Source of the DNA: Escherichia coli
Lineage (GTDB): Bacteria; Pseudomonadota; Gammaproteobacteria; Enterobacterales; Enterobacteriaceae
Reading direction: 5' to 3' (one strand)
DNA: 64,000 bases
Assembly: GCF_048403405.1 (NCBI RefSeq)
Contig: NZ_CP183129.1
Positions 4,687-44,549 of this stretch are shown here, piece by piece. How positions within the stretch are numbered: position 1 is the first letter of the stretch; each line of letters starts with the position of its first letter. Below the pieces are notes generated by a model. That model saw only the letters and a program-made list of their open reading frames with translations, did no database searches and was not told the DNA's origin. Made by a program: the position numbers and the translations under genes.

Positions 4687-6009
4687 TTACAACGACTGAT
4701 GTCGTGTCTCATGGGTCAGCAGCAGGGCGATTAACGTCAAGCCAGCCATCGCCGCCAGATATAACCCCACCGCACCTAACCCGTAGTTAGTCTGCAACCA
4801 GGCTGCGATATACGGCGCAACGGAAGCCCCGAGAATCGACGCTACGTTGTAAGAGAATGATGCTCCGGTGTAACGCACTTCTGTCGGGAACAGCTCTGGT
4901 AACAGCGCGCCCATCGGCCCGAAGGTCAGCCCCATCAGACTTAACCCCAGCAGCAGGAAGGCAAAAACCAGAATCGGGTTGCCAGAACCGAGCAGCGGGT
5001 TAAAGGCGAACAGCGCGAACAGGATGATCAGCGTGGTGATGATTACCATGCTTTTACGGCGACCAAAGGCATCAGCCAGTAATCCGGCGACTGGCACCAT
5101 CACGCCAAAACCAATAACTGCCATCATCAGCATCCACAACACTTCGTTACGCGGCAGGCCAAGCCCAACGGGCGCGGCGGCGGTACTAAAGGTCATAGAG
5201 TAGACCGTCATGATGTAAAACAGCGTATAGGTTGCCAGCATAATGAACGTACCCAGTACGGTTACGCGAACATGTTTGGTCAGCAGCGTACCCAGCGGGA
5301 TCTTCACCTGTTTTTTCGCTTTAGCGACTTTCTCAAACACCGGCGACTCATGCAGCGACACGCGAACATACAGGCCGATAATGACCAGCACCGCCGAGAA
5401 GATAAACGGCACGCGCCAGCCCCAGCTCATAAACTGCTCGTCGGTCAGTAGCCAGGAAAGCAGTAAGAAAGTGCCGTTGGCAAAGAAGAAGCCAATCGGT
5501 GCGCCCAGCTGCGGGAAGGAGCCGTACAGTGCACGTTTGCGCGGTGGGGCGTTTTCAGTCGCCAGCAGCGCCGCTCCGCCCCATTCGCCGCCTAAGCCCA
5601 GACCCTGACCAAATCGAGCCAGTGCCAGCAGCAGCGGGGCGAAAATACCAATCGTGGCATAGCCCGGCAGCAGACCAATCACCACGGTCGAAATCCCCAT
5701 CGTTAGCAACGAGGCGACCAGCGTCGCTTTACGCCCAACGCGATCGCCAAAATGACCAAAAACGGCAGAGCCAATGGGGCGCGCGACGAAGGCGATGGCG
5801 AAGGTGGCGAGCGACTGTAGCGTTGCTGCCGTTGGATCGCCCTGCGGGAAGAAGATATGCGGAAACACAATAACGGCCGCAGTGGCGTAAATATAAAAGT
5901 CGAAGAACTCAATGGCCGTGCCAATGAGAGAGGCGACAAGGACTTTATTACGCGAGTTGATCGGCGTGTATTCTTGCTCGTGGTCGAGTGTTGTGGCTGT
6001 TGCTTGCAT
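4687..6009 (-). CDS. yhjE: MFS transporter (metabolite:H+ symporter-like)
   Basis: 440 aa, multi-TM, MFS motifs (GHFGDRVGRK); synteny. Confidence 0.9.
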   Translation of the reverse strand: MQATATTLDHEQEYTPINSRNKVLVASLIGTAIEFFDFYIYATAAVIVFPHIFFPQGDPTAATLQSLATFAIAFVARPIGSAVFGHFGDRVGRKATLVASLLTMGISTVVIGLLPGYATIGIFAPLLLALARFGQGLGLGGEWGGAALLATENAPPRKRALYGSFPQLGAPIGFFFANGTFLLLSWLLTDEQFMSWGWRVPFIFSAVLVIIGLYVRVSLHESPVFEKVAKAKKQVKIPLGTLLTKHVRVTVLGTFIMLATYTLFYIMTVYSMTFSTAAAPVGLGLPRNEVLWMLMMAVIGFGVMVPVAGLLADAFGRRKSMVIITTLIILFALFAFNPLLGSGNPILVFAFLLLGLSLMGLTFGPMGALLPELFPTEVRYTGASFSYNVASILGASVAPYIAAWLQTNYGLGAVGLYLAAMAGLTLIALLLTHETRHQSL

Positions 6010-6325
6010 AATCTTTTCTTATTTTTTGGCTAACGAATAGCCATATTACGCACAGCAAAAGTGATATTTCAATGTGTAACAAATCGCGAAAATGGTCAAA
6101 AACCAGGCAAAAAGGGGATAATGTTTAGGCCAGTGATTTTTCTTCTATGAAATGCTTCACATAATTATTATAAATAGTGGATAAAACTGGTTTCAGGTTA
6201 AATAAAAGTTACCAACTGGATTTATATGCTGGGGTTATGAGTTGGTATGAAATTGTTTGCTCCTGAAGAGATGTAGTTTCAGGTGGTTATGTGCATGTCG
6301 TTGCCTGGTCTCTGGCTGGCTTGTA

Positions 6326-6366
6326 CCCCCTCACCCTAATCCTCTCCCCGAAGGGGCGAGGGGATC
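6326..6366. repeat. Second copy of the GC-rich intergenic repeat (ccctaatcctctccccgaaggggcgagggg)
   Basis: Direct sequence similarity to 4561-4598. Confidence 0.5.
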
Positions 6367-6401
6367 GACCGTGCGTTTATCAGGCATTATAAACCAATGA
6401 A

Positions 6402-7415
6402 TTACCGCTGCGTTTTCCCCGGCATTCGCGGGTCGTCTTTATATTCGGCGGTGGCAATCCACGCCGCGCAAAACAGCGTCAAACGGGCGAAGAAGTAGAA
6501 AAATGCCATCAGTCCCAGCACGGAACCAAATGCTGCGCCAGAGGGGGATTTCATCAGCGATGGCAGGGTGTAGGTCATCACGATTTTAATCACTTCAAAA
6601 CCAATCGCAGCCAGAAATGTTCCGCGAATCAGGGCTTTTTTGCGCGGACGGTGGCGCGGCAAGCGCCAGAAGATCCAAAAGAAAAGCAGATAGTTGGCGA
6701 AGATGGAAATCGCCAGGCCAATCAACCGCCACGTCGGTTTCAGCCACTCAATGCTGTTCAGGTGCAGGGCGCTAATAATCATTTGCTGCGCCGAACCGGC
6801 AACCGAGGTGATCGAAAGCGTCACAATCAGTGCAATCAACAAACCAATCAGCGAAATAAAATCACGCAGATATTTTACCCAGAACTTCTCCTGATCTTGC
6901 GGCGAGCGTTCCCAGACATCGCGTGACTGGGCGCGAATCGCTTCACGCAGGTTACCCATCCAGTTGATGCCGGAATAAAGCGCCACCGCCAGGCCGACAA
7001 GCCCTACGGTAGTACGCTGCTGAACGGCGGTGTTGATGGTGTTTTTCAACGTGGCGGCTAGCGTCGGATCGCTGATGTTTTGCAGAATTTTGTCGAAGAT
7101 ATCCTGTAGCAACATCGGATGGGAGGCCAGCACAAAGCCCCCTGCGGCAAACGACACCATCAAAATCGGGATCATCGATAAAAATGAGAAATAGGTGATA
7201 GCCGCACCAAACTGGTTACCCAGCCGATCGTTAAAGCGTTCTGTTGCGCGAATCAGGTGCGCAATAACCGGTTGGCGTTGGACTTTTTCGGCCGTGGTGG
7301 TGACGGTTTCCAGCGCCTGGCTAACTTTGCCGCCTTTCTCGCTATTATCCAACTGCTTAATCGGCTCGTGCTCCAGATCCTGGGTGGGACGTTTGATCTC
7401 GTTTTCCTGCGTCAT
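6402..7415 (-). CDS. yhjD: YihY/BrkB-family inner membrane protein
   Basis: 337-aa polytopic membrane protein; synteny. Confidence 0.85.
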   Translation of the reverse strand: MTQENEIKRPTQDLEHEPIKQLDNSEKGGKVSQALETVTTTAEKVQRQPVIAHLIRATERFNDRLGNQFGAAITYFSFLSMIPILMVSFAAGGFVLASHPMLLQDIFDKILQNISDPTLAATLKNTINTAVQQRTTVGLVGLAVALYSGINWMGNLREAIRAQSRDVWERSPQDQEKFWVKYLRDFISLIGLLIALIVTLSITSVAGSAQQMIISALHLNSIEWLKPTWRLIGLAISIFANYLLFFWIFWRLPRHRPRKKALIRGTFLAAIGFEVIKIVMTYTLPSLMKSPSGAAFGSVLGLMAFFYFFARLTLFCAAWIATAEYKDDPRMPGKTQR

Positions 7416-39761: not shown

Positions 39762-40058
39762 ATGCAGTTGGAAGAAGTTGCTAAAGCGCTGAAAGAGCTA
39801 GGTCACCCGACCCGTTTGTTCATATTCAAACACCTGGTCAAAGCGGGGGAACAAGGTTTGCCGGTCGGTGAGTTGCAAAAGCAGCTTGGGATACCCGGCT
39901 CTACACTCAGTCACCATATTTCAGCACTGGTATCGGTAGGGCTGGTCAAACAAAACCGTGAGAGTCGAACGCTGATGTGTGTTTCGCAATACGCAATGCT
40001 GGAAGCGATAATTGAATTCTTACGCGAGGAGTGCTGCGTAAATAGCAAAATTGCCTGA
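39762..40058 (+). CDS. ArsR/SmtB-family winged-helix regulator (non-canonical, C-terminal ECCV)
   Basis: 98 aa; HTH region (LPVGELQKQLGIPGSTLSHHISALVSVGLV) typical of ArsR/SmtB; divergent from the permease gene; lacks the ELCVCDL metalloid site of canonical ArsR. Confidence 0.7.
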   Translation: MQLEEVAKALKELGHPTRLFIFKHLVKAGEQGLPVGELQKQLGIPGSTLSHHISALVSVGLVKQNRESRTLMCVSQYAMLEAIIEFLREECCVNSKIA

Positions 40059-40106
40059 TGCGCTACGCGCTACAGATTTCATGCCATGCACGGTTTTGTA
40101 GGTCGG

Positions 40107-40145
40107 ATAAGACGCGTTAGCGTCGCATCCGACATAAACAAAGCG
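40107..40145. repeat. REP (repetitive extragenic palindromic) element
   Basis: gtaggtcggataagacgcgttagcgtcgcatccgacat resembles the REP/PU consensus (GTAGGCCGGATAAGGCG...GCATCCGGC). Confidence 0.6.
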
Positions 40146-40180
40146 CACTTTACCAACTATGGGCAGTGGATATCGCCGCT

Positions 40181-40606
40181 TTATTTCAAGCGTTTACCCG
40201 CTTCATCAACCACTTTCTCGCCATCTTCCTTGGTGAACGCGCCTTGTTGCGCATCTGGCAGAATTTCCAGCACCACTTCTGAAGGGCGACACAGGCGAGT
40301 TCCCAGCGGCGTCACCACAATCGGGCGATTAATCAGAATCGGGTGCTGAAGCATAAAGTCGATTAACCGATCGTCAGTAAATTTATCTTCTGCAAGGCCC
40401 AGTTCCTCATACGGCTCGACGTTTTTACGCAGCAGCGCGCGTACGGAAATCCCCATATCGGCAATGAGTTTGACCAGTTCATCACGCGTCGGTGGGGTTT
40501 CCAGATAATAGACGATGGTCGGTTCTGTACCGCTGTTGCGGATCATCTCCAGCGTATTACGCGACGTACCGCAGGCCGGGTTGTGATAAATGGTAATGTT
40601 GCTCAT
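40181..40606 (-). CDS. arsC: Arsenate reductase (glutaredoxin-coupled)
   Basis: 141 aa; MSNITIYHNPACGTSRNTL with the catalytic Cys. Confidence 0.95.
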   Translation of the reverse strand: MSNITIYHNPACGTSRNTLEMIRNSGTEPTIVYYLETPPTRDELVKLIADMGISVRALLRKNVEPYEELGLAEDKFTDDRLIDFMLQHPILINRPIVVTPLGTRLCRPSEVVLEILPDAQQGAFTKEDGEKVVDEAGKRLK

Positions 40607-40618
40607 ATCAATATCTCA

Positions 40619-41908
40619 TTACAAAGTGAAAGAGAGACGTAGCGCCAGCGCAGCCAGCGTCACAAAAAGCACCGGCAGGGTCATGATAATCCCTGTACGG
40701 AAGTAATATCCCCAGCTGATAGTCATATTCTTCTGCGAAAGAACGTGCAGCCAGAGTAGCGTAGCCAGGCTACCAATTGGGGTAATTTTCGGCCCCAAAT
40801 CGCAGCCAATCACGTTGGCATAAACCATCGCTTCTTTGATAACGCCAGATGCCGTGCTGCCATCAATGGACAACGCGCCAACCAGTACCGTCGGCATATT
40901 GTTCATAATAGAAGAGAGGAAGGCGGTGAGGAATCCGGTGCCGAGCGTCGCGGCCCACAGGCCGTTTTCCGCCAGCACGTTGAGTACGCCAGAAAGATAT
41001 TCCGTTAGTCCGGCATTGCGCAGGCCATAAACCACCAGATACATGCCGAGCGAGAAGATGACAATCTGCCAGGGCGCACCGCGTAGCACCTTACCCGTAT
41101 TAATTGCATGACCGCGTTTAGCGACGGCAAATAATATCAGCGCGCCCACTGCCGCAATGGCGCTGACCGGAATGCCGAGCGGTTCCAGAACGAAAAATCC
41201 CACCAGCAGAAGCAGTAAAACAACCCAGCCAGTTTTGAACGTAGCAGGATCTTTAATCGCTTCTGCGGGAGATTTCAGCAGCGCCATGTCGTAGTTCTGC
41301 GGAATATCTTTGCGGAAATAGAGATGCAACATCACCAGCGTGGCAACAATCGCGGCGATATCCACCGGCACCATCACCGAGGCATATTCGCGAAAGCCGA
41401 GGCCAAAGAAATCTGCGGAAACGATATTCACCAGGTTGGAGACAATAAGCGGCAGGCTGGCGGTATCGGCAATGAACCCGGCCGCCATCACGAACGCAAG
41501 CGTCGTGCCTTTACTGAACCCTAAAGCCAGCAGCATGGCGATGACAATCGGTGTCAAAATAAGCGCCGCGCCATCATTGGCAAACAGAGCTGCAACGGCA
41601 GCACCGAGCAGGACAATCCAGGTAAACAGCAAGCGACCGCGTCCATTGCCCCAGCGTGAGACGTGCAGCGCTGCCCATTCAAAAAAGCCGGACTCATCCA
41701 GCAGCAGGCTGATGATAATAACGGCAATAAACGCAGCCGTCGCGTTCCAGACGATATTCCACACCACCGGAATATCACCCGGATGTACCACGCCCGTAAC
41801 TAACGCCAGTACTGCGCCGAGTGTTGCACTCCAGCCGATGCCTAAACCTTTCGGCTGCCAGATAACCAATACGATGGTCAGGACAAAGATAGCGCCTGCC
41901 AGTAACAT
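40619..41908 (-). CDS. arsB: Arsenite/antimonite efflux permease
   Basis: 429 aa from [13 protein letters not shown]...; polytopic membrane protein. Confidence 0.93.
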
Positions 41909-41962
41909 AATGCCTCCCGGAAAAAACACATGTGCAAATCCATATGTGTTTAGATAAATTTT

Positions 41963-42316
41963 TTAACTACAAATGTTCTTACTGTCTTCGGAACAATTTT
42001 GTCGAGCCAGGTTGCGGACAATCACCTGAACCTTTTCCTGTTCGCATCGCCAGGCCTGCTCAATAATTTTCGCGGCCCATGATGGAATATGCGGTGATAA
42101 GCGGTAATGAACCCACTTACCCTGCTTGCGATCCAGCAATAGCCCACTTTCACGCAGCAATGCCAGGTGGCGGGATATCTTGGGCTGCGACTGATCGAGG
42201 GCAGTACAGAGATCGCAGACGCATAATTCTCCCAGCTCGCTGAGCAGTAAAACGATGCCCAGACGGGTTTCATCAGCAAGAATTTTGAACAGTTGGATGG
42301 GTAACAGAAATGACAT
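41963..42316 (-). CDS. arsR: Arsenical resistance operon repressor
   Basis: 117 aa; ELCVCDL metalloid-binding motif within the HTH. Confidence 0.95.
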   Translation of the reverse strand: MSFLLPIQLFKILADETRLGIVLLLSELGELCVCDLCTALDQSQPKISRHLALLRESGLLLDRKQGKWVHYRLSPHIPSWAAKIIEQAWRCEQEKVQVIVRNLARQNCSEDSKNICS

Positions 42317-42468
42317 ATTGCGCTCCTGATTGTTGCAGGTAGTGTCTCTCTTCGAAGCGGATAAGTCAAAAACATATATGGTTTAACGAATGTGTATGTG
42401 CAGAGGAAGGTAATAGGTGTGAATTTTGAGTTGGCTATTCATTTGAAAGGAGGTCTGAATCAGGACGT

Positions 42469-42555
42469 AAAAAAACCGACTTTGCGTCGGTTTTTTACTT
42501 TCCAGCCCTGAGTTGGTGGCTCTGGCTGGAGTGAGAGAGCTCTTATCTAACAGTT
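42469..42555 (-). ncRNA. agrA: agrA-like small RNA (repeat unit homologous and antisense to dinQ); ends approximate
   Basis: Minus-strand terminator (ccgac-gcaaa-gucgg plus U-run) at 42469-42498; adjacent 26-nt block ctggagtgagagagctcttatctaac also occurs in the dinQ leader. Confidence 0.5.
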
Positions 42556-42703
42556 CAATACTATTAGCCAGTGGCTAACATTGCAAGAATTAGCGATTTC
42601 TTCAGCTGGAGAAGGGACAGTTTGCTATACATGTTGGTGAAAGAGGATTTATATACTTTCATCGGGTCGCTGCCGTACCAAGCCTTGTCCGAATCCGGAC
42701 GTA

Positions 42704-42790
42704 AAAAAAACCGACTTCGCGTCGGTTTTTTACTTTCCAGCCCTGAGTTGGTGGCTCTGGTTGGAGTGAGAATGCCATCATCTAACGCAT
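42704..42790 (-). ncRNA. agrB: agrB-like small RNA (second repeat unit); ends approximate
   Basis: Second copy of the terminator plus the ttggagtgagaatgccatcatctaac block; the proximal copy is the one expected to be antisense to dinQ. Confidence 0.5.
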
Positions 42791-42848
42791 CAATGCTAAT
42801 ACCATACTGAAACTATTGCAAGGACGTGCTGGTTTTATAACCTGCATG

Positions 42849-42868
42849 TACTGTATGATTATCCAGTT
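42849..42868 (+). promoter_or_regulatory. LexA (SOS) box of the dinQ promoter: TACTGTATGATTATCCAGTT
   Basis: CTGT-N8-CCAG, one mismatch from CTGT-N8-ACAG. Confidence 0.7.
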
Positions 42869-43059
42869 AGCTCTGAGGCATTTTCACTCTGGTAATGCGC
42901 ATAAACGCTTTCAAAGTCCTGGTCAGAAGTACGGGTGGTGCCGTTAACTGATGCTCTGGCCGGAGTGAGAGAGTTCTTATCTAACAATGAGACATGCGCC
43001 GTGACAGGCAGTGGATGAGTAAGCGGATGCATTCTCACTCCATAGCATGGAGAAAACGG

Positions 43060-43143
43060 GTGATTGATAAAGCAATCATCGTTCTTGGGGCGTTAATTGC
43101 GCTGCTGGAACTGATCCGCTTCCTGCTTCAGCTTCTGAACTGA
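43060..43143 (+). CDS. dinQ: DinQ, 27-aa single-TM toxic peptide (type I toxin-like), GTG start
   Basis: GTG-initiated ORF encoding MIDKAIIVLGALIALLELIRFLLQLLN, preceded by GGAG; downstream of the LexA box. Confidence 0.75.
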   Translation: MIDKAIIVLGALIALLELIRFLLQLLN

Positions 43144-43162
43144 TAGCGGAAACGTAGCTAAG

Positions 43163-43190
43163 GGCAAAGAGCACACCACTCTTTGCCCTT
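43163..43190. terminator. Bidirectional hairpin between convergent dinQ and gor (ggcaaagag-cacaccact-ctttgcc)
   Basis: 9-bp inverted repeat between the two stop codons. Confidence 0.55.
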
Positions 43191-43196
43191 TAACAT

Positions 43197-44549
43197 TTAA
43201 CGCATGGTCACGAACTCTTCTGCCGCCGTCGGGTGAATGGCGACGGTATTGTCGAAGTCTTTTTTGGTCGCCCCCATCTTCAGCGCCACCGCGAAGCCCT
43301 GCAACATTTCATCCATACCAAAACCAATGCCGTGAATTCCGACAATCTTCTCTTCCGGTCCAACGCATACCAGTTTCATGCGGCACGGCTGGCGGTGAGT
43401 GGTGACGGCGGTATACATCGCGGTGAAAGAGGATTTATACACTTTCACCTGATCGTCGCCGTACTGCTCGCGCGCCTGCGGTTCCGTTAAACCAACAGTC
43501 CCAATCGGCGGATGGCTGAAGACCACGGTCGGAATGTTGCTGTAATCGAGATGCTCATCCGGCTTGTTATTAAACAGGCGTTCAGAGAGACGGCGACCCG
43601 CTGCAACTGCTACCGGTGTCAGTTCCACTGCACCCGTGTTATCGCCCACCGCGTAAATACCTTCAACGTTGGTATTTTGATATTTATCGACGACGATATA
43701 GCCTTTTTCGTTAGTTTTAACGCCAGCGGCTTCCAGGTTGATGTTGTCATTGGCAGGCTCGCGACCAATCGCCCAAATCAGGCAATCCACCGTTTCACTA
43801 CGCCCATCTTCCAGCTCCAGCGTCAGGCTGCCATCGGCATTTTTCACCACCGCTTTCGGGATGGCATTGGTATGCAACTGTGGGCCTTCGGCGTTCATCA
43901 CTTCGACCAGCGTTTCAGAGATCATCGGGTCGAAGCTGCGCAGCGGCGCGTGTTTACGTACAAACAGATGCGTTTTCGCGCCGAGGCCGTTAATCACGCC
44001 CGCCAGTTCAACGGCGATGTAACCCGCGCCAACAACCGCTACGCGCTCTGGCAGCGCCGGAAGGGCGAAGAAGCCATCAGAATCAATACCGTATTCCACG
44101 CCCGGAATATCCGGGTGGCTCGGACGACCGCCGGTGGCGATCAGAATATGATCGGCCGTGATGGTTTCACCGTTAACTTCCAGCGTTTTGGCATCAACGA
44201 AGCGGGCAAAGCCTTTGATTACATCAACGTTATTTTTACCGAGCACGTTTTCATAGGAAGTATGAATACGGTCGATATAGGCGGTACGGCTGGCGATCAA
44301 CGTTTCCCAGTTGAATTTATTGATAGTGGTATCAAAACCATAATCCGGGCCGTACATGTGGATCGCTTCACGGATTTGCGCCGCGTGCCACATCACTTTC
44401 TTCGGTACGCAGCCAACATTTACGCAGGTGCCGCCCAGTTCTTTGGCTTCAATCAGCGCGCATTTCTGACCGTACATAGCCGCGCGGTTGATGGAGGCGA
44501 TACCGCCGCTGCCGCCGCCGATGGCGATGTAATCATAGTGTTTAGTCAT
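43197..44549 (-). CDS. gor: Glutathione reductase
   Basis: 450 aa; FAD-binding GGGSGG, redox-active disulfide ([13 protein letters not shown]). Confidence 0.95.

Follow-up and report, generated by a model that had tools for sequence, protein, structure and literature searches.

Results

The arsR-gor interval encodes dinQ and two agr sRNAs

The window analysed here, a stretch of 64,000 nucleotides of E. coli DNA, includes the arsC-arsB-arsR / dinQ / gor / rlmJ / prlC region, as recognised from its open reading frames (ORFs) and from the RefSeq annotation of matching genomes. The interval between arsR and gor contained two copies of an AgrB-family sRNA together with dinQ (Table 1). Both sRNAs were encoded on the minus strand and matched the Rfam family RF02891 with scores above its gathering threshold of 40 bits. 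They were divergent from the dinQ ORF and had a pairing repeat in common with it, as in a dinQ/agrB type I toxin-antitoxin system. This 34-nt repeat was present in three copies, at 42519-42552, at 42754-42787 and within the dinQ 5′UTR. The promoter of agrB was homologous to that of agrA (42793-42821), and a LexA operator accompanied dinQ, whose control by LexA has been reported (PMC3567139).

The published complementarity to dinQ is 30/31 for agrB and 25/31 for agrA (Weel-Sneve et al. 2013; PMC3567139), and in K-12 agrB is the antitoxin that controls dinQ (PMC3567139). In our own counts, the arsR-side copy of K-12 had a single mismatch with the dinQ target, in line with the published value for agrB. 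Published and own counts thus identify the arsR-side copy as agrB and the dinQ-side copy as agrA, which places the sequence described below within the agrA-agrB spacer.

The interval could be divided into two units with the same orientation and the same order of parts (repeat families D1, D2, D3 and D5), and the start-to-start spacing of families D1 and D5 was 234-235 nt. Unit 1 began with the hairpin and agrA, continued with the promoters of agrA and dinQ, dinQ itself and the shared terminator, and closed with gor nt 1353-1084, from where it ran on directly into the remainder of gor. The window strain and K-12 differed at about 10% of the 4-fold sites across arsC-arsB, gor and rlmJ (window 39900-42316 versus locus L086) and by five amino-acid changes in the 117 residues of ArsR, which is a deep haplotype for a within-species comparison.

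Table 1. Features of the arsR-gor interval, in coordinates of the window
Feature	Position	Strand	Basis
Repeat unit 2, truncated (234 bp): hairpin; terminator, gene and promoter of agrB; relic	42453..42686	-	
agrB, arsR-proximal antitoxin sRNA	42467..42550	-	Rfam RF02891, 108.1 bits
agrB promoter: -35 TTGCAA 42581-42586, 17-nt spacer, -10 TAGTAT 42558-42563	42558..42586	-	Sequence reading
Filler between the relic and the agrB -35 box	42588..42603	-	8/16 gor matches after a 6-nt gap, not significant
gor′ relic, decayed copy of gor nt ~1084-1162, gor sense	~42604..42680	-	Gapless core 42626-42678
Filler at the unit junction (about 7 nt; AAGGCTT when read along gor), linking gor′ nt 1084 to the hairpin of the next unit	42681..42686		
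Full repeat unit 1, 780 bp	42687..43466	-	Inferred from alignments
agrA, dinQ-proximal sRNA	42702..42785	-	Rfam RF02891, 98.3 bits
LexA operator of dinQ (TACTGTATGATTATCCAGT)	42849..42867	+	Sequence reading
Antitoxin target site in the dinQ 5′UTR, third copy of the 34-nt repeat	42953..42986	+	Repeat family D2
dinQ ORF, GTG start, 27 aa	43060..43143	+	ORF list; annotated dinQ in matching RefSeq records
gor (gorA), glutathione-disulfide reductase, 450 aa	43197..44549	-	ORF and RefSeq annotation
gor segment copied by the relic (gor nt 1084-1162)	43388..43466	-	

A decayed piece of gor lies in the agrA-agrB spacer

An earlier note on this DNA had proposed that the spacer holds a relic of the gor coding sequence, and the alignments bore this out. 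Positions 42626-42678 matched gor 43412-43464 without gaps at 44 of 53 nucleotides (83%), and the local alignment score of 35 lay about 19 standard deviations above the shuffle mean (10.9±1.3, maximum 18, in 1,000 shuffles, each aligned on both strands). The gapped alignment extended over 81 columns with 56 matches, 22 mismatches and 3 gap columns. The 44-mer quoted in the note was present, although a few bases away from where it had been placed (42636-42679, with its gor counterpart at 43422-43465), and its identity, given as about 85 percent, was 38/44 (86%). The match itself, which had been put 230-270 bp inside gor, was measured at 215-270 nt from the gor stop codon. The donor segment was 0.8 kb away on the same strand, and the collinear alignment established that the relic has the orientation of gor, so that a minus-strand transcript would be sense to gor, as suggested. 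The Gor-like translation on that strand also held: the window allele contains a minus-strand ORF at 42564-42662 in which 13 of 18 residues were identical to Gor. A plus-strand ORF (42571-42810) that had been pointed out as well was present in the ORF list. As read from these alignments, the relic is confirmed as a pseudogene fragment of gor, collinear with it and on the same strand; with about 80 of the 1,353 nt of gor, it has no capacity to encode the enzyme.

The similarity was specific to gor. The 18-mer GGTGAAAGAGGATTTATA, common to relic and gor, occurred at only two sites in the 64-kb window with up to three mismatches allowed (chance expectation, 0.03 matches). A 95-nt query run against 5,426 complete E. 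coli genomes matched 5,422 of them, in one to three places each, all of them chromosomal and none on a plasmid, and among the E. coli matches listed each fell either in the agrA-agrB spacer or in gorA. In 80 Enterobacteriaceae gor loci, the relic matched gor only (nt 1086-1138), in dozens of species. The signature of a dispersed repeat, that is, many copies in unrelated contexts, was not found, with at most three places per genome and two in the window. Shuffled controls and a search for a generic repeat had been named in the earlier note as the ways to overturn the relic, and both left it standing. The distance from the shuffle mean, the restriction of the listed E. coli matches to spacer and gorA, and the recurrence of the same gor position in dozens of genera make chance similarity or a generic dispersed repeat a practically negligible explanation.

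The allele found in K-12 aligned to gor 43388-43463 (76 nt; score 30 versus 10.2±1.3 for shuffles), and the K-12 and window alleles taken together give a relic extent of about 42604-42680, which corresponds to gor nt 1084-1162. The filler that separates the relic from the agrB -35 box may be further decayed gor (to about nt 1185) or a deletion joint. Repeat D7 (42600-42620 versus the dinQ 3′ end, 71% over 21 nt) was considered as a remnant of a second dinQ and rejected, since the K-12 allele aligns there to gor.

The spacer has two deep alleles and deletion derivatives in E. coli

Two discrete spacer alleles were present in E. coli: the window type (identity to the query of 95% or more) in about 809 genomes, O157:H7 included, and the K-12 type (73-74% identical to the query) in about 2,997 genomes. 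The K-12 allele had lost 4 nt from the best-conserved core and independently retained different gor bases. Both alleles shared 10 derived changes relative to gor, as well as identical outer boundaries, indicating that they descend from one relic.

The two relic haplotypes (window 42604-42680 versus L001 889-958) differed at 27% of sites (20/74; JC 0.34). For comparison, 4-fold sites differed by 10.6% between strains in the flanking genes and by 24.8% between E. coli and E. albertii. Counted per 100 nt, differences numbered 25 in the bin containing the relic and 0-9 in the remaining bins, which covered genes and intergenic DNA. No intermediate relic alleles were seen, a single genome falling in the 90-95% identity band. 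This split could reflect ancient polymorphism, introgression or clustered mutation. Gene-conversion tracts from gor were examined as a cause and rejected: the allele-specific differences were interleaved, the shared derived sites persisted and no clean tract appeared. At one homologous site (window 43463 / 42677), gor and relic agreed with each other in each strain, both having C in the window strain and both T in K-12 (GTACGG versus GTATGG on the gor strand), which could be a coincidence or a trace of gor-relic gene conversion.

The relic was absent from about 1,614 of 5,422 E. coli genomes (~30%). In about 785 genomes, the relic was deleted and the only agr was a hybrid, of agrB type on its terminator side and of agrA type on its promoter side (L002, L003 and L096); to judge from the sequence, the relic of these alleles is removed by recombination between the agr copies. 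The hybrid agr had no more than three mismatches in 33 nt to the dinQ target, and some of these strains also lacked arsR and arsB. Another ~830 genomes, among them ST131 and Nissle 1917, carried a 408-bp allele in which the agr body was fused to the dinQ repeat (for example, E. coli O25b:H4 ST131, L004 700-800). The fusion allele retained an intact DinQ ORF but lacked the LexA box and the promoters of dinQ and of both agr genes; the dinQ system is probably silenced in these strains.

E. albertii shares the junction and retains the end of the gor copy

In E. albertii (L006), gor was followed by dinQ and a single agr and then, after the agr terminator hairpin, by the same junction as in E. coli (GGAC-AAGGCTT-GGTACGG in E. 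coli and GGAC-AAAATTT-AGTACGG in E. albertii). The gor′ of E. albertii had kept two stretches on either side of a deletion, nt 1084-1103 (17/19) and nt 1323-1353 (26/30), the latter closing with the TAA stop. These two collinear pieces reached a summed score of 31 versus 17.1±1.7 for shuffles, and none of 2,000 shuffles attained 31. A metagenome contig (L089) provided an independent instance of the E. albertii-type structure. Because this gor′ reaches the stop codon, the copied piece must once have been the whole last 270 nt of gor. The earlier note had argued that the duplicated unit held part of the gor 3′ end and was later trimmed, a proposal that the last 30 nt kept in E. albertii, up to the TAA, support. 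The junction common to both species indicates that the event is older than the E. coli/E. albertii split, and the 10 derived changes shared by the E. coli alleles, together with the gor state that E. albertii retains at ATCAGGT, fit a single origin before that split. Since E. albertii shows the relic to be ancestral, the one-agr and promoterless alleles of E. coli are secondary losses, namely deletions between repeats.

Beyond the gor′ stop of E. albertii lay a foreign fragment, 77-94% identical to ~90-kb E. coli plasmids (phage tail protein, RelE/ParE toxin). The original downstream sequence has thus been overwritten and cannot show what followed. This plasmid-like fragment occupied L006 5431-7150, between the gor relic and slp, and included a HigB/HigA-like toxin-antitoxin pair (5945-6657); the ars operon was absent at this locus. 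A hairpin after the gor′ stop was considered as the old gor terminator and rejected, since L006 matches the ~90-kb plasmids from 5431 on. A decayed second dinQ was sought after gor′ in E. albertii and the result was not significant (score 28.5 versus 18.5±3.3, maximum 35), the score being driven by the gor end.

The order gor-dinQ-agr, with one agr and no detectable relic, was present in two more distant outgroups, Citrobacter youngae CCUG 30791 and Citrobacter sp. On2M, and the remaining Citrobacter loci and those of Salmonella, Klebsiella and Enterobacter had no dinQ adjoining gor. The Citrobacter dinQ-agr cassette (L016/L018 4868-5390) was located between gor and a cytochrome c peroxidase-like gene, was absent from most other Citrobacter loci and carried the 9-mer AGGGCAAAG on each side, which may mark an insertion. 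Kosakonia sacchari (L046 5600-6100) contained a dinQ-like gene and an agr-like sRNA with a matching pairing core of its own, about 750 bp downstream of gor and past another gene; at its left edge, this module has a sequence (AAATGTTAAAAGGCA) similar to that found at the gor stop codon of E. coli.

The relic is probably the scar of a tandem duplication followed by an internal deletion

In the window, the homology between the agrA and agrB flanks stopped at the hairpin (...GAC) and homology to gor began 7 nt further on, which is the junction expected of a head-to-tail duplication of 780 bp. What the alignments display directly is homology to gor, a junction common to both species, a gor copy that reached the stop codon and a colinear order of parts. 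We consider it probable, although well short of certain, that the relic is the non-functional scar of a tandem segmental duplication followed by an internal deletion. A segment of 780 bp would have been duplicated head to tail in an ancestor common to E. coli and E. albertii. It would have started at gor nt 1084, crossed the gor stop codon and the shared terminator, taken in dinQ, agr and the promoters of both, and ended at a small hairpin just past the agr terminator. The product would have been an intact gor and two dinQ-agr modules with a 270-nt copy of the gor 3′ end between them. On the way to E. coli, about 545 bp would then have been deleted, comprising gor′ nt ~1163-1353, the terminator and the second dinQ along with the LexA-controlled promoter of that gene. 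The deletion would have stopped directly upstream of the second agr's -35 box. Left behind would be agrB, an extra antitoxin gene that has a promoter of its own, and some 80 nt of gor′, the relic. One such deletion, sparing a complete antitoxin gene, accounts for unit 2 being shorter than unit 1. In E. albertii, the second module would have been overwritten by foreign DNA and gor′ would have acquired a different internal deletion. The relic itself would drift freely and do nothing.

Regarding the timing, the relic-to-gor distance (JC 0.31-0.35) was compared with the 4-fold-site distances of gor, 0.30 between E. coli and E. albertii and 0.68 between E. coli and Citrobacter; taken as a rough clock, these values place the event between the two splits. 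We infer that gor′ and the second agr go back to a single event and that the locus formerly had a second dinQ. A complete second unit, with a second dinQ between gor′ and agrB, was found in none of the 80 species loci, 4 metagenome loci and sampled E. coli alleles, a sampling of Escherichia species that is incomplete and leaves out E. fergusonii and the cryptic Escherichia clades. Metagenomes scanned for variants of the junction gave only four loci, three of the E. coli type and one of the E. albertii type, with no intermediates among them. Additional copies of the gor 3′ end plus dinQ were also sought in E. coli, where dinQ-like (dql) paralogues confounded the result.

Because E. albertii carries the relic beside one agr only, tying the gor copy to the agr duplication is the most economical reading and not a proven one. 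The single-agr outgroups are divided: the two Citrobacter lack the relic, and E. albertii has it next to a second unit that has been overwritten. The earlier note had taken the relic as evidence that the agr repeats arose by segmental duplication; the order of parts and the abutting junction support this. In Citrobacter, the cassette also ends just past the same hairpin, and this coincidence of the duplication end-point with a cassette boundary weakens the argument from abutment. The dinQ-agr cassette might instead have arrived at the locus along with a gor 3′ end that replaced the resident 270 nt; this displaced piece would then be the relic. Such an insertion with target duplication could have proceeded by homology-facilitated illegitimate recombination or by single-crossover integration of a circular gor3′-dinQ-agr molecule, and the second agr of E. 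coli would be a separate, later event. E. albertii has exactly the expected structure, gor-dinQ-agr-gor′ with a single agr, the boundary just past the hairpin is common to Citrobacter, and the module does move, being patchy among genera and found at other loci, for example in Kosakonia. However, this scenario requires at least one more event, and the second agr copy would have to end at the exact base of the first junction without a second gor′ behind it. Moreover, the gor 3′ end of E. coli does not look foreign (identity of 88.1-88.9% to dinQ-carrying and 84.4-89.6% to dinQ-less Citrobacter), and the DNA after the E. albertii gor′ stop is foreign instead of old gor-downstream sequence. Altogether, we regard an insertion as an unlikely origin, though the most serious competitor.

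A still weaker candidate is an ectopic patch, in which a short nearby piece of gor was copied as break-repair filler into an already existing agrA-agrB spacer, with no relation to the agr duplication. The shortness of the relic and a donor only 0.8 kb off on the same strand would suit it. The E. albertii copy, by contrast, once reached the gor stop over about 270 nt and lies beside a single agr, and the exact abutment of the relic on the repeat-unit boundary would be a coincidence, so that we find this origin quite improbable. The tandem duplication with a subsequent deletion thus remains the origin that we prefer.

The relic looks non-functional

We also considered what the relic might do at present, irrespective of its origin, either as a small protein or, transcribed from the plus strand, as an antisense regulator of gor mRNA. 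The window allele keeps the gor frame in an open minus-strand ORF of 32 codons (42564-42662), and PGAP calls a hypothetical protein across the relic in some strains. In contrast, the 4-nt deletion breaks the frame in the majority K-12-type allele, the two alleles differ at 27% of sites, about 30% of the E. coli genomes are without the relic, and no Shine-Dalgarno sequence could be read ahead of the ATG. A consensus scan gave no plus-strand promoter, and it also missed the known agr promoters; this simple scan listed neither these promoters nor the known terminators and is uninformative. Annotation at the relic consisted of nothing or of a PGAP hypothetical protein only. Among the gene calls in the spacer (L005 848-1063 and L094 839-1012, both on the minus strand), the L005 call crossed the agrA terminator as well as the relic, and at least that call is therefore probably spurious. 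In view of these points, a working element is highly improbable, and the relic looks like a non-functional evolutionary footnote.

The agr copy that best matches dinQ varies among strains

In 12 sampled loci with two agr copies, the dinQ target best matched the arsR-side copy in six and the dinQ-side copy in the other six. The arsR-side copy (agrB position) was the best match in the window, K-12, L005, L092, L088 and L090, and the dinQ-side copy (agrA position) in O157:H7 (L091), L093, L094, L095, E69 (L012) and L087. Across all 19 loci examined, single-copy loci included, at least five different variable pairing cores were present. This split suggests that the cognate antitoxin alternates between the paralogous positions among strains. 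Tentatively, and with less confidence than in the duplication itself, we propose that the E. coli-E. albertii ancestor had two complete dinQ-agr modules, that loss of the second toxin was followed by divergence of the two antitoxins and that the one dinQ left was re-targeted back and forth between them.

Discussion

The locus studied here is the one described by Weel-Sneve et al. 2013 (PMC3567139) and Kristiansen et al. 2016, with the same RF02891 sRNAs, dinQ, LexA box and 34-nt repeats, and both studies reported the repeats and the regulation. The earlier note knew of no account of the relic as part of this locus, and in the searchable open-access text of the two dinQ/agr papers the word duplication occurs 0 times and gor-derived spacer sequence is not mentioned; the other open-access texts consulted were likewise silent on both points. 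Within that text, the relic is a previously unremarked but ordinary evolutionary scar.

Local duplication of type I toxin-antitoxin units has precedents. The ldrA-C / rdlA-C genes of E. coli K-12 are tandem complete units that arose in this way (PMC4147584). The dinQ locus resembles them in having tandem units made by local duplication; in contrast to LDR, where each unit has a toxin, it kept only one toxin, and its duplication reached a flanking gene. A closer likeness is offered by the duplicated zorO-orzO / zorP-orzP locus of E. coli (PMC3919570). In both systems a divergent module of toxin and sRNA antitoxin was tandemly duplicated and one toxin was lost later; the antitoxin left over is expressed from a promoter that it kept, next to a short stub of adjoining DNA. 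Remnants with orz only retain 27-29 nt of the zor 5′UTR (PMC11264685). The two cases differ in that the stub of the dinQ locus comes from the adjoining housekeeping gene gor and that of zor/orz from the toxin UTR, and also in that agrB, unlike the orphan orz antitoxin, controls the remaining toxin in K-12 (PMC3567139).

The locus can also be compared with the scars of integrated elements. Displaced gene 3′ ends are found beside such elements, where a direct repeat flanks the cassette and the copy that is not joined to the gene decays. Similarly, a direct repeat of the gor 3′ end flanks the intervening cassette here. In contrast to those scars, the intervening DNA is only about 0.5 kb long and the junction is a 7-nt filler and not a repeat. 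Neither an integrase gene nor attachment-site repeats were seen beside the E. coli cassette in the window sequence and its ORFs.

The relic gives a datable history to an SOS-regulated toxin-antitoxin locus. It puts the duplication before the E. coli/E. albertii split, polarises the E. coli alleles and explains why E. coli has two agr genes, the extra one probably being the survivor of a module whose toxin was deleted. Its practical use is small: the spacer can be treated as neutral DNA, and the two deep haplotypes are a handy marker of recombination at the locus. The more interesting lead is the position of the cognate antitoxin, which differs between strains. If the proposed re-targeting is true, the duplication made a switchable pair of antitoxin specificities, probably via gene conversion among the three direct repeats, and the rule known from K-12, with agrB and not agrA as the antitoxin, would be strain-specific.
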